Notes: generated from the letters alone by a model not told the origin. Positions 44,483-48,735 are shown, numbered from the stretch's first letter. The stretch: DNA of 64,000 nt from an uncultured Thermodesulfobacteriota bacterium (GCA_964387595.1 CAYLYF010000002.1:7403-71402), one strand, 5' to 3'. Program-made: numbers and translations.

Positions 44483-44797
44483 TTATTTAGAGAGAAGCTT
44501 ATTTGTTTCTGAGTGACGTTTTGCAAGAGTATCAATTATGGTTTTTGCAAGCTTAGGGGAGGTGTCTAAAACAGTGTCCAGATCATCACAATTAAAAACC
44601 TTTACATGGCTTTTTCCAATTGAACGAACAGTAGCGCTTCGTTTTTCTCTTAAAATTGCACTCATCTCTCCAAAATATTCATCGGGATTTGAGATCCTTT
44701 CGATCTCTGTACCTGATTTTGAGACCAGTAAACCATATTCAGCTTTTACCATTTGAAAGATCTCGTCTCCTTGGTTCCTTCCTCTATTAAGGTCTCA
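44483..44797 (-). pseudogene. Truncated cyclic-nucleotide-binding domain gene fragment (C-terminal half only)
   Basis: Contains the phosphate-binding cassette FGEMSAILxxxRSATV. The reading frame opens only ~15 codons upstream of the first Met and the N-terminal beta-strands of the cNMP domain are absent. Confidence 0.5.
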
Positions 44798-45059
44798 GCA
44801 TCTCCATAATGTCTGTCATTTTAGTTATAAATCAATACTGGATTTATGTATTTTGTTTGTAATAATGTTATAATTAATTTGCAGAAAATAAAAAAAATGT
44901 CAACTTGTTAAAGATTTTGATTTTCAGACGATACACATTTATGATAATACGTGTAAAATATGTATGTTTTGTTATGTTAAATTTAATTTTTTTTATATAC
45001 TCAAAACAATATACTACTTCAAAAATAATACGCAATATTTTTAGGGTTAAAACTTATAA

Positions 45060-46102
45060 ATTAAAAGTGTTGCAGAGGGAAGGGCTATTGAGAAAACGCC
45101 TTCTTCTAAAGGGGATTCAATAAAAGGAACCAGACCGGCACCGGTCCCGTTTTCCGATAAAGCTGTTGTTGAAAAAAAAGAAGAAATTAAAGTAGAAAAA
45201 GTTGAACAAAAATCTGCGAACAGTCCTGAACCTTTACCTTTTTCTGAAAATCCGGTGAATCAGACGAAACAGACCAAGGTTAAGATTACAAGGGAACTGC
45301 AGCAGTTAAGCATGTCGCTTCAGATGATTCCGGTTAGAACAACATTTCAAAAAATGGCCAGAGTTGTCAGAGATCTTGCAAAGAAAGGTAATAATCTTGT
45401 TGCTTTTAATACCAATGGCGAGGATACAATGCTTGATAAAAGTGTTATTGACAGGATAGGTGACCCCTTAATTCATCTTGTTAGAAATTCTGTTGACCAT
45501 GGTATTGAACTGTCACCTGATGATAGAGTGAAAGCGGATAAGGATAAAACCGGAAATATAGAGCTTAATGCTTTTCATAAGAGCGGGAATATTCATATTG
45601 AGATTAAGAATGATGGAAGGGGACTGGACCGGGAAGCGATACTTAAAAAAGTGACTGAAAAAGGTCTCGTTAGTGAAGGGCAGACCCTGAGTGAACGTGA
45701 TATTTATAATCTTGGTTCTTCCCGGCTTTTCAACTGCAAAGAAGGTTACGGATGTGTCAGGTCATGGAGTGGGTATGGATGTGGTTAAGAGAAATATAAC
45801 ATACCGACCCTTTCTGTTGTAAAGTCAATACCGCCGTCAACTGAGGATTTAACAACAATAATTAATAAGGGGGATATGATCAAAATACGGGAATTATTGT
45901 TGACAGTGGATCGGAAGTTTTTGATATACAGGTTGATGCAGTTGAAGAAACACCTACATTTGGCACAGCAGTAAGTACAAATTTTATAAAAGGAATCGCA
46001 AAAACAAAAGGCGGAGCAAAGATCCTTTTAAATATTGAAAAAGTTCTGACCACAGATGAACTGCAATCAGTTTCTGAATCAACCATTACTGAAAGTAATT
46101 AA
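45060..46102 (+). pseudogene. cheA: Histidine kinase CheA, degraded: no P1/P2 domains, frameshift in the P4 kinase domain, internal deletion before the P5 (CheW-like) remnant
   Basis: The 45060-45790 frame encodes a K/E-rich linker plus P3/P4 motifs (DPLIHLVRNSVDHGIE, DDGRGLD). A -1/+1 frameshift near 45700-45710 moves the conserved LPGFSTAKKVTDVSGHGVGMDVVKRNI into another frame, which stops at ~45822. Positions 45868-46102 encode only the C-terminal half of a CheW-like domain (GIIVDSGSEVFDIQ...AKILLNIEKVL) with no start codon. Confidence 0.75.
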
Positions 46103-46107
46103 CTGAT

Positions 46108-46911
46108 TTGATGGACCTGAAATTATTTAATCAATTTAGAGATCTCGTTTATAAAAACTGCGGAATAAACTTAAATGAGTCAAAAGTTACGATGGTCAGT
46201 TCGCGCATCGCCAAAAGGATGCGTGTTTTAGATATAAAAGACCATTCAGATTATCTTGAATATCTCATAAAGGATAATAGCGGTGATGAGATAACAAAGT
46301 TCATGGATGTTATCTCGATAAATGTAACAAGCTTTTTTAGAGAAGCGGAACATTTTGATCTGCTTGAAAAGGTAATAACGGAAATTGTTGAAAGCGGCCA
46401 AAAAAAAATCAGGATTTGGTGCGCAGCGTCATCAACCGGCGAGGAACCCTTTACAATTGCAATGGTTTCCAACATTATCACAGCAGATAAATTGATAGAT
46501 CTGAAAATTTTAGCTACAGATATATCCACTAAAGTTCTGGCAGATGCGAAAGCGGGTAAATATAGTATTGATAAAATAAAAACGATCCCAAAAGCGCTGC
46601 TAAGAGAGTATTTTACCAGGGAAACAACAGGAGATAAAAACCTTTTCTGTGTGAAGGATGAGCTGAAAAGGCTGATTGCTTTTAGACGGCTTAATCTATT
46701 TAAGCCGCCTTTTCCGATGAAGGGTCCGATGGATGTTGTATTCTGCAGAAATGTGATGATGTATTTTGATAATCAGACAAGAACACGACTTTTGTCTGAG
46801 ATCTACAGACTCTTAAAGCCCGGCGGTTATCTTATAACCGGGCATGCTGAAAATCTGACCTCTGTAAAGAATAATTTTAAATGTGTACAGCCTTCTGTTT
46901 TTCAGAAGTAA
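46108..46911 (+). CDS. cheR: Chemotaxis protein methyltransferase CheR
   Basis: The 267-aa ORF has the CheR N-terminal helical domain and SAM-binding motifs (IWCAASSTGEEPFTIAM). Confidence 0.9.
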   Translation: MMDLKLFNQFRDLVYKNCGINLNESKVTMVSSRIAKRMRVLDIKDHSDYLEYLIKDNSGDEITKFMDVISINVTSFFREAEHFDLLEKVITEIVESGQKKIRIWCAASSTGEEPFTIAMVSNIITADKLIDLKILATDISTKVLADAKAGKYSIDKIKTIPKALLREYFTRETTGDKNLFCVKDELKRLIAFRRLNLFKPPFPMKGPMDVVFCRNVMMYFDNQTRTRLLSEIYRLLKPGGYLITGHAENLTSVKNNFKCVQPSVFQK

Positions 46912-46964
46912 ATTTAATCGAATAATTTATTTGAAGAGATAATAAATAGTTCTGGAGACTCTGG

Positions 46965-47444
46965 TTGAAAACAAAAGTAATCGGAATATCAGATATGATG
47001 GTCTCAAAAACACCCAATGAAACGCTGATAACGTATTCACTCGGTTCATGTCTTGGAGTTGTGATTTATGATCCAGTTGTCCACGTAGCCGGGCTTCTCC
47101 ACAGCATGCTGCCGCTTTCAAAGATTGATCCGCAAAAAGCAAAAAAATCGCCTTTTATGTTTGTAGATACCGGAGTACCGCTGCTTTTCAGGGAAGCTTT
47201 TAAATTGGGGGCTGAAAAACAAAGACTTATCGTTAAAGCAGTAGGGTGCTCTTCACTTTTGAAAAAAAAAGGATTTTTTAAAATCGGTGAAAGAAACTTC
47301 ACTGTTCACAGGAAGTTATTATGGAAAAATAATATTCTGATAGAAGGTCAGGATGTCGACGGCAACGGCTCAAGAACCGTAAAAATACAGGTTAAGAGCG
47401 GTAATGTTATTATTAAATCCGGCGGAGAAAAGAATGAATTATAA
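46965..47444 (+). CDS. cheD: Chemoreceptor glutamine deamidase CheD
   Basis: The catalytic Cys/His motifs LGSCLGV and GLLHSMLP are present and the ORF is 159 aa. Confidence 0.85.
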   Translation: MKTKVIGISDMMVSKTPNETLITYSLGSCLGVVIYDPVVHVAGLLHSMLPLSKIDPQKAKKSPFMFVDTGVPLLFREAFKLGAEKQRLIVKAVGCSSLLKKKGFFKIGERNFTVHRKLLWKNNILIEGQDVDGNGSRTVKIQVKSGNVIIKSGGEKNEL

Positions 47445-47489
47445 AATTTAATTTTAACAAATCGTATTTCCCTAATTGGAGGCTGATAA

Positions 47490-47876
47490 ATGTCATTTAA
47501 TATATTAATTGTTGATGATTCAAAAACTATCCGATCCGTTATAAAGAAAACACTTGATATTGCCGGGGTGCCGATCGGTGAGTTATATGAAGCAGAAAAT
47601 GGTCAGGTTGCACTTGATGTGATGAAGGATAACTGGGTTGACCTGGTATTTGCCGATATCAATATGCCTGTAATGACGGGTATTGAAATGATCCAAAAAA
47701 TGTCTGAAGATAAAATACTTGAGAATATGCCGGTAATCATTGTGGCAACTGAAGGAAGTAAAACCAGGATAGAAGAGTTTCTTAAACAGGGGGTCAGGGC
47801 CTATATCAGAAAACCCATAAGTCCTGAAGCATTAAGAAATATCGTTAAAGAAGTAATGGGGGATTATGATGAATGA
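47490..47876 (+). CDS. cheY: Chemotaxis response regulator CheY
   Basis: A single receiver domain with DD (VDDS) and D (FADINMP) is present, with T and K positions conserved. The ORF is 128 aa. Confidence 0.85.
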   Translation: MSFNILIVDDSKTIRSVIKKTLDIAGVPIGELYEAENGQVALDVMKDNWVDLVFADINMPVMTGIEMIQKMSEDKILENMPVIIVATEGSKTRIEEFLKQGVRAYIRKPISPEALRNIVKEVMGDYDE

Positions 47877-48078
47877 TGAAAATAATGAACTTCTGATAAG
47901 ACTCTGTTGTGATGTGTTTGAAAATCTGTCTTTTATGTTTGGTGAAACAATTGATTTTGATGAGGCTGAAACAAAGACGATTTCACTTGAAGAATGGAAT
48001 GAAATTGTTTAAAGCGAAGAATATCTGGCTCTTAACATTGAGGACGAACCCATATTAATTAAAGCAAAGGTTGAATAG
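47866..48078 (+). pseudogene. Possible CheC/CheX-like phosphatase gene fragment (two short in-frame pieces separated by TAA)
   Basis: A 47-aa ORF (…LCCDVFENLSFMFGETIDF…) followed by a 22-aa piece resembles only the N-terminal region of CheX/CheC. The assignment is weak. Confidence 0.3.
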
Positions 48079-48081
48079 TCT

Positions 48082-48735
48082 ATGCCTGTTAAAGTTCTGA
48101 TCGTTGACGATTCAGCAGTCGTTAGAAATATTTTCAAATAAGCCGGGTGCAATAATAAAAACAACTAAACTTTCACTTACAAAAACCACAAATAAAGTTG
48201 TTGCAACAGGCGGTACTCAGGCACTTGAATCGATTTTAACCTCACTTCCTCCAAATGCTCCCGGAATTGTCATCGTGCAGCACATGCCTGAAAAATTCAC
48301 TAAAAGCTTTGCTGACCGCCTTGACACGATCTGTGATATTCAGGTTAAAGAGGCCGAGGATGGTGACAGGGTAATACCGGTAAGGGCGCTAATAGCTCCG
48401 GGGAACTCTCACATGCTGTTAAAAACGGAGCAACATACTATGTACAGATAAGAACCGGTCCGCTGGTTAAAAGGCAAAGGCCGTCTGTAGAGGTGCTTTT
48501 TAATTCGATGGCAAAGTATGCCGGAAATAATGCCATTGGTGTAATACTCACGGGGATGGGGTCTGACGGTTCTGACGGATTATTAAAGATGAAGGAAACC
48601 GGTGCAGAAACCCTTGCACAGGATGAGAAGTCCTGTGTTGTTTTCGGGATGCCTTGTCAAGCAATAAAATTAGGTGCTGCTAATAAGGTGGTTAGCCTTC
48701 AAGAAATGCCTAAAGAAATACTTGCATTAGCCTGA
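48082..48735 (+). pseudogene. cheB: Protein-glutamate methylesterase CheB, degraded: receiver domain deleted after codon ~18, plus a frameshift in the methylesterase domain
   Basis: [19 protein letters not shown] then stop at 48138-40. The catalytic domain ([10 protein letters not shown]...[17 protein letters not shown]...IAPGNSHM) reads in the +1 frame from 48104 to 48451. The conserved [16 protein letters not shown]...ILTGMGSDG...CVVFGMP continues in another frame from ~48440 to 48735. Confidence 0.75.

Follow-up and report, generated by a model that had tools for sequence, protein, structure and literature searches.

In what state is a bacterial chemotaxis cluster in which broken and clean genes stand side by side? 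The question is raised by the che genes at 44483-48735 of a 64,000-nucleotide (nt) stretch of DNA from an uncultured Thermodesulfobacteriota bacterium (GCA_964387595.1 CAYLYF010000002.1:7403-71402), the whole of which is called the window here. The initial annotation of this locus proposed a decaying cluster in which cheA and cheB are pseudogenes and cheR, cheD, and cheY are still intact. We consider this proposal correct in a wider form, with a probability of about 0.9: the chemotaxis cluster decays inside a larger motility and signalling locus, and its flagellar-type operon is dead or dying, erased in the lineage of the window. The proposal is borne out by Pfam, by three relatives with an intact syntenic cluster, and by lesions that are lineage-specific. 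Its extent was drawn too narrowly, since it missed the losses of a response regulator (RR) gene, a cyclic nucleotide monophosphate (cNMP)-binding gene, a PilZ gene, and flagellar filament genes, and the decay exceeds 44483-48735.

Pfam splits the locus cleanly into fragments (cheA, cheW, cheX, and cheB) and intact genes (cheR, cheD, and cheY). Only these three of the eight ancestral cluster genes are kept intact in the window copy, and the RR gene upstream of cheA is gone. The features of the fragments are far beyond chance, and the fragments are 81-89% identical at the nucleotide level to the intact genes of a close relative, L167. Judged from these alignments, the fragments are clear orthologues of CheA, CheB, CheW, and CheX, yet they fall short on every point by which a functional member of these families would be recognised, apart from the orthology of cheA, which holds. 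The pathway encoded at the locus is unable to signal because it has no kinase, coupling protein, phosphatase, or esterase.

The ancestral locus in relatives

Three relatives with an intact cluster were recovered. L083 and L084, reached by a search with the concatenated CheA fragments, are syntenic and share ~72% nucleotide identity with the window. L167 (NCBI GCA_024449895.1), reached by a MiaB search, is the closest relative found, with 84% amino acid (aa) identity in MiaB and 81-89% nucleotide identity (~81% overall). A search with CheR in genome and metagenome contigs gave only relatives at ≤48% identity, with no close relatives among the matches. For threonyl-tRNA synthetase (ThrRS), the best named matches were Deltaproteobacteria/Desulfobacterota metagenome-assembled genomes (MAGs) at 65-68% identity, and other relatives reached 82-92%.

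In L083, the order is cheA-cheW(172 aa)-cheR(265)-cheD(159)-cheY(128)-cheX(151)-cheB(342)-DUF3368-DegP-PCMT-LigA. L084 adds the upstream side, with miaB-RR(125)-cheA(Hpt...CheW)-cheW-cheR-cheD-cheY-cheX-cheB-DUF3368. L167 reads, from the other end, DegP-DUF3368-CheB(342)-CheX(152)-CheY(128)-CheD-CheR(266)-CheW(173)-CheA(890 aa)-RR(125), and continues past the RR gene with cNMP_binding(241)-MiaB-PHP-PilZ(283)-FlaG-flagellin-FliD. Its CheA presented two Hpt stretches, H-kinase_dim (487-547), HATPase_c (596-734), and CheW (740-868) in Pfam, which also confirmed CheX (PF13690), flagellin, and FliD. None of L083, L084, and L167 carries the truncated architectures of the window.

The motility side of the locus was also found in L168, L169, and L170 (MiaB at 79-80%). 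All three presented MiaB-PHP-PilZ, and in all three an RR gene lies on the other side of MiaB, followed by an Hpt protein in L168. Past PilZ, L168 and L169 continue with FlaG-FliC-FliD-FliS-FliT and glycosyltransferases. From the gene orders in relatives, the ancestral cluster appears to have been RR-cheA(890 aa, two Hpt)-cheW-cheR-cheD-cheY-cheX-cheB, of the flagellar type with cheD and cheX. In L167, the layout taken as ancestral places PilZ and flaG-fliC-fliD and following genes on one side of PHP-miaB, and the cNMP-binding gene and RR-cheA-cheW-cheR-cheD-cheY-cheX-cheB on the other.

Several peculiarities of the relatives were noted. Where intact, CheA of this clade is of unusual length (L167 5813-8485, 890 aa), with two Hpt domains and an N-terminal extension of ~170 aa, and JGI lists a faint FimL_C match for the CheA homologue of L168. 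In L084, cheD (4986-5363) is called at 125 aa only and is possibly truncated there. The L083 contig opens with 132 nt unrelated to cheA (1-132), with a stop just before P3, and an assembly break or an insertion is possible at that point.

Remnants of cheA and cheW

The lesions were catalogued with blastn anchors, MAFFT, and tblastn against L167 (and L083). The cheA pseudogene (45058-45892, plus strand), delimited by Pfam together with these three, retains the linker, the second half of P3, most of P4, and 30 codons of P5. This retained part is in the syntenic position and is 86% identical to L167 cheA at the nucleotide level and 90% at the amino acid level.

A 1660-nt deletion with its junction at 45058-45062 removed the whole RR gene and CheA codons 1 to ~409, including both Hpt domains. 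In agreement with the proposed lack of a P1 (Hpt) domain upstream, Pfam found no Hpt match in 45060-45785; RR or Hpt remnants were also sought in 44753-45060, with one insignificant match (E=1.3). The P3 and P4 domains had been described as present, and this does not hold for either of them as a whole. P3 lost its first helix through a 156-nt in-frame deletion (52 codons) at 45278-45288, and H-kinase_dim (PF02895, P3) gave no Pfam match in 45060-45785. P4 lost its last ~42 codons through a 127-nt deletion after VKRNI at 45789-45798, and in the same interval HATPase_c matched only at profile positions 4-55 of 111, with 23.6 bits, under the cut-off of 26.4. A frameshift had been placed near 45700-45710 and is there, at 45713, before the PGFST/G2 region; it is a 2-nt deletion and not the single nucleotide first suggested, and it leaves the G2 box out of frame. 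Just 30 codons of P5 are left (45800-45892).

After P5, a 642-nt deletion (junction 45889-45893) joined P5 codon ~790 to cheW codon ~105. The cheW pseudogene (45893-46102, plus strand) is thus reduced to codons ~105-173, which are joined out of frame to the P5 remnant of cheA. The C-terminal half of a CheW-like domain had been recognised at this place, and half a domain it is, with the CheW profile matched only at 78-136 of 138 in 45869-46099. Its assignment to P5 of CheA was rejected: the piece is the 3' end of a separate cheW, with 68 of 172-173 codons, no start, and 75% aa identity to residues 105-172 of L083 CheW, and the true P5 is the 30-codon piece before it.

The AT-rich tract that had been noted upstream of cheA (44813-45062, no strand) is not junk. 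It is the retained divergent intergenic (promoter) region between the cNMP-binding gene and the lost RR gene, 81.5% identical to L167rc 6797-7047. Since the tract is conserved as an intergenic region, the promoter region survives. Promoter-like matches stood at background (16 vs. 14.0 expected), and terminator-like matches numbered 6 vs. 2.3 expected.

Remnants of cheX and cheB

Between cheY and cheB, a two-piece fragment with a weak resemblance to CheC/CheX had been reported, and tblastn to L083 CheX identified it as a remnant of cheX. The cheX pseudogene (47869-48078, plus strand; tblastn and MAFFT) lost 249 nt in frame at the junction 47966-47972 and is interrupted by a TAA nonsense codon at 48010-48012. 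Its pieces gave no Pfam match, whereas CheX of L167 matches PF13690.

The cheB pseudogene (48082-48735, plus strand) was delimited by the Pfam split, tblastn, MAFFT, and a structure alignment. As proposed, it keeps its first 18 codons and then runs out of frame, with a stop following in the frame of these codons. The deletion behind it was estimated earlier at ~290 bp and is larger: 382 nt were replaced by 23 nt (48135-48157), a net loss of 359 nt that removed the receiver and the linker and shifted the frame. An additional 12-nt deletion at ~48209 removes IGAS, including the catalytic Ser. In the alignment to the solved structures 1A2O and 1CHD, Ala stands at the position of Ser164, the catalytic Ser of the GASTGG motif in the numbering of Salmonella CheB. 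A further frameshift, expected near 48440-48455, was found as a 4-nt deletion at 48426. This deletion breaks the CheB_methylest match (PF01339) exactly between profile positions 81 and 82, with one part in frame 2 (48101-48448) and the other in frame 1 (48367-48732). A "KPGA" motif kept inside the cheB gap was considered and rejected, as support at the DNA level was absent.

Intact cheR, cheD, and cheY

The three remaining genes are clean open reading frames (ORFs), as first described, with full-length Pfam domains above the cut-offs. The cheR gene (46111-46911, plus strand) encodes 266 aa and is collinear with CheR of the relatives; Pfam on 46108-46911 gave CheR_N with 62.4 bits (3-52 of 53) and CheR with 199.9 bits (1-190 of 195). 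The cheD gene (46965-47444, plus strand) encodes 159 aa from a TTG start and aligns over its full length to that of the relatives, with PF03975 complete (1-108 of 108, 87.3 bits). The conserved Cys and His of CheD are catalytic residues, and by inspection of the alignment GSC and LLHS, which hold them, are present. The cheY gene (47490-47876, plus strand) encodes 128 aa with 96% aa identity to CheY of L167 and matches Response_reg (PF00072) with 90.6 bits; on inspection of the alignment, it keeps the conserved DD, the D57 equivalent, T, and K.

No indel lies inside these three genes. Three small indels are nearby, at the cheR stop codon (46910) and in two intergenic spacers. Two side observations concern the proteins themselves. 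The CheD Cys (YSLGSC, window 47008-47022) is kept in the window and in L167 and is Ser in L083 and L084. Start differences were observed for CheR, with a longest ORF of 267 aa and a called gene of 239 aa, as well as for MiaB (444 and 425 aa).

Number, mechanism, and timing of the lesions

Compared with L167, the interval 44483-48735 carries at least 12 lesions, all specific to the lineage of the window: deletions of 388, 1660, 156, 127, 642, 249, 359, 12, 4, 2, and 1 nt and one TAA. Thus, 11 of the 12 are deletions, and insertions inside genes were not found. The kinase and the esterase had been proposed as the genes hit first. Lesion density, however, is alike across the broken genes (~1 per 230-540 bp of ancestral length), so that the greater number of lesions in cheA and cheB is mainly a matter of gene length.

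The junctions of the large deletions mostly fall on direct repeats of 5-10 nt that are visible in L167: GTCATTT, AAATT, A(A/G)ATTA, GAAA(T/A)ATAT, GGGAA, and (G/T)AAAC. Repeats in this position are a signature of slippage or illegitimate recombination. Insertion sequence (IS) elements involved in the decay were not found at the locus. Spontaneous deletions, mostly between direct repeats of 5-10 nt, together with two nonsense substitutions, have destroyed cheA, cheW, cheX, and cheB and truncated their neighbours. Behind this, selection on swimming and chemotaxis would have been relaxed, or their loss favoured, and the usual deletional bias of bacteria would now be removing the DNA.

The remnants of cheA and cheB presented pairwise ratios of nonsynonymous to synonymous substitution rates (dN/dS) of 0.04-0.07 against the relatives, with dS of 0.7-2.3. 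Ratios this low mean that most of the divergence arose while the genes were still constrained, so that they were inactivated recently compared with the split from L167. A relative-rate test, counting the aa changes unique to the window and those unique to L167 with L083 as the outgroup, gave 29:10 for the cheA, cheW, cheX, and cheB remnants together (p=0.003), of which the cheX share (6:1) is slightly unreliable, as its middle piece was mis-framed and the cheX values are rough. The ratio was 26:15 for cheR, cheD, and cheY (p=0.12) and 28:29 for the flanking DUF3368 and DegP genes (p=1). Constraint on the remnants is relaxed, and the intact genes are in between.

Losses beyond the chemotaxis genes

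Next to the retained intergenic region, the cNMP-binding gene (44483-44821, minus strand) is a remnant. It encodes 241 aa in L167, and an 89-aa ORF (44483-44752) is left in the window after the loss of 388 nt (junction 44813-44821) and of a single nucleotide at ~44773. Pfam matched cNMP_binding at 34-88 of 89, under the cut-off.

The PilZ gene (42085-42424, plus strand) keeps the last ~113 of 283 codons (~171-283), with Pfam PilZ at 57-101 of 102, and carries TAA at 42203-42205 where L167 has Lys. The left edge of this remnant is a synteny breakpoint (~42081-42085). To its right lies the 3' part of PilZ; in L167, L168, and L169, flaG-fliC-fliD (and fliS-fliT and glycosyltransferases) come before this part. 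Beyond the breakpoint, the relatives carry the PilZ N-terminus, flaG, fliC, and fliD. To its left, the window has its homologue in the region close to ThrRS of L165, L166, and L171, where glycosyltransferase genes come next. Neither the glycosyltransferase set nor the flaG-fliC-fliD block is present in the window.

Elsewhere, the window is densely packed with intact housekeeping genes, among them Ffh, transketolase, TrkAH, PlsX, the Opp transporter, FtsY, SMC, trehalose synthesis, PheST, ThrRS, IF3, MiaB, DegP, PCMT, LigA, LptD, and the trp operon. Judged from these genes, the decay is confined to the locus and is not genome-wide.

Alternative explanations

Frameshifts and gaps in a metagenome assembly may be artefacts of assembly or sequencing, with continuous cheA and cheB in the real genome, and the window is such an assembly, with the 4-nt deletion at 48426 abutting an A5 run. 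Nevertheless, we regard this explanation as exceedingly improbable. Most lesions are deletions of 127-1660 nt and not homopolymer miscounts. The window is 100% identical to the JGI contig Ga0222639_1000034 over 37490-57876, and an independent ENA assembly (L082), made from a different sample with a different assembler, agrees with 38104-48993 at 99.954% identity, with five mismatches and no gaps. The exact fragment proteins also recur in dozens of assemblies: the 115-aa CheB fragment, which is bounded by the 359-nt gap upstream and the 4-nt frameshift downstream, was found in 40 blocks of the assembly collection, and the exact CheY protein in 69, where the 24 longest contigs with CheY carry mostly the same neighbouring proteins. 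Every indel is reproduced, and therefore assembly error, which the independent assemblies contradict, is excluded for practical purposes. Equally hard to credit is that the truncated genes form a functional, derived split architecture under selection, such as a CheA without P1 and a CheB without receiver. Other bacteria do have CheB proteins without receiver and split CheA proteins, CheA-like proteins of ~400 aa without Hpt are among the database matches, and the fragments keep a low dN/dS. However, the best of these matches (402 aa) is merely cut by a contig end, and the closest relatives have no such truncations. Moreover, the remaining frames are themselves interrupted: in cheA, the G2 box no longer lies in frame, P3 is reduced to half, and P5 is almost entirely lost, and CheB has no catalytic Ser and is frameshifted in the middle of its domain.

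For the breakpoint in PilZ, the alternative is that the flagellar filament and glycosylation genes were moved by a rearrangement and not lost. We infer a single deletion of ~20 kb at ~42081-42085 as the simplest reading because in one relative the ThrRS and MiaB homologues both list the same longest contig of 50,850 bp, which suggests that the two are linked there; the filament block would then have been deleted and not moved elsewhere. Relocation is favoured by the fact that only the junction is seen and that the ThrRS-side and PilZ-side neighbours of the relatives lie on non-overlapping loci; an overlap of these two loci in one relative was sought and none was found. Against relocation, the 5' part of PilZ is missing, the remnant has a nonsense codon, and every neighbouring motility-related gene is decaying. 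Overall, we consider relocation unlikely.

Much closer to the balance is the fate of cheR, cheD, and cheY. They have either not yet been hit or are kept for another chemosensory system elsewhere in the genome. If functional, they must serve components encoded elsewhere, because cheA, cheW, cheX, and cheB are lost. Purifying selection could keep them if CheR and CheD modify the receptors of another array and CheY serves another kinase as response regulator or phosphate sink, and this is quite possible, if a little short of an even chance. The 1.64 kb of these genes has no indel or stop, whereas the 6.2 kb around them has taken 12 lesion events; when the 12 events were placed at random over the 7.9-kb ancestral interval from the cNMP-binding gene to cheB, this had P=0.02. 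Their dN/dS against L167 is 0.03-0.10, all their Pfam domains are full length, the promoter-containing intergenic region upstream is retained, and an orphan cheW exists elsewhere in the related genome L166. On the other side, the probability rises to P=0.06 when a contiguous lesion-free stretch of 1.6 kb or more is allowed anywhere (post hoc), the window-specific aa changes in these genes are in non-significant excess, which hints at relaxation, and a recent decay makes survival by chance plausible. The lack of lesions is thus suggestive of retention by selection. A more specific version, which we put forward more tentatively still, is that the contiguous cheR-cheD-cheY block is actively maintained and transcribed from the retained promoter region, as a minimal receptor-modification and response-regulator module for another sensory system or a non-swimming task.

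Some points weigh against the decay of the locus as we propose it. The dN/dS of the remnants is still very low and fits only if inactivation is recent compared with the L167 split, and the lesion-free state of cheR, cheD, and cheY is mildly unexpected under purely neutral decay. An intact allele could still exist at a minority frequency, as the evidence consists of assemblies and not of reads. The ancestral contiguity of the ThrRS side and the PilZ side is only inferred, and the flagellar block may have been relocated. The evidence covers this window, and the genome may hold other che clusters, methyl-accepting chemotaxis proteins (MCPs), or basal-body genes, so that the loss of motility may be incomplete.

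Comparison with known systems

Operons with cheD and cheX or cheC beside cheA, cheW, cheR, cheY, and cheB are found in Thermotoga, Bacillus, and spirochaetes. The relatives agree with this type in the ancestral set and order of the genes, which lie next to flagellin genes. The differences are that the window keeps three of the eight genes, that at 890 aa and with two Hpt domains the ancestral CheA is long, and that no MCP gene is in the cluster.

Bacterial genomes reportedly show a deletional bias, by which DNA without function is lost chiefly through deletions (Mira, Ochman, and Moran, 2001). With 11 deletions among 12 lesions, the window illustrates this rule and does not depart from it.

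Motility and chemotaxis pseudogenes occur in non-swimming lineages such as Shigella, Yersinia pestis, Burkholderia mallei, and Bordetella pertussis. As in these, the locus has been taken apart piecemeal by frameshifts, nonsense codons, and deletions, part of the regulon is still intact, and relatives keep a working locus. Unlike these, the host is uncultured and apparently free-living, a Desulfobacterota-like bacterium whose neighbouring genome is dense and intact; IS elements are not involved, and deletions flanked by microhomology dominate. Published work describes motility loss in experimentally evolved Campylobacter jejuni (PMC7677240) and reviews bacterial pseudogenes (PMC11078800). The case reported here is ordinary reductive evolution, a gene decay of a well-known kind, with no new mechanism or system.

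Other observations

All five differences between the window and L082 (10,890 bp compared) fall within 42808-42867, inside the PHP-domain gene, and look like a small recombination tract or a hypervariable patch. Elsewhere in the window, a noncoding element of ~300 bp is present in two direct copies (10679-10982 and 16411-16695), 83-95% identical, in AT-rich intergenic gaps. It has internal short repeats of the TGAACGT/CGATGTT type, and a truncated ORF resembling a four-helix bundle (16238-16414, minus strand) lies beside the second copy.

In L166 (ThrRS at 89%), the inositol-1-phosphate synthase gene (3927-5082) is called in two pieces (228 and 150 aa), and several short MORN-like ORFs are near it; these could be pseudogenes or assembly errors.

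Implications

The locus offers a clean natural snapshot of a bacterium dismantling a behaviour. Its ancestral state can be rebuilt from relatives, its lesions can all be listed one by one, and short direct repeats show how the deletions arose. The decay is unusually well documented because close relatives keep the locus intact.

For annotators, it calls for caution, as dozens of public assemblies list pieces of these pseudogenes as "CheA", "CheB", and "CheW" fragments. For the organism, it means that an abundant uncultured lineage is probably non-motile or becoming so, which matters for the ecological reading of its MAGs.

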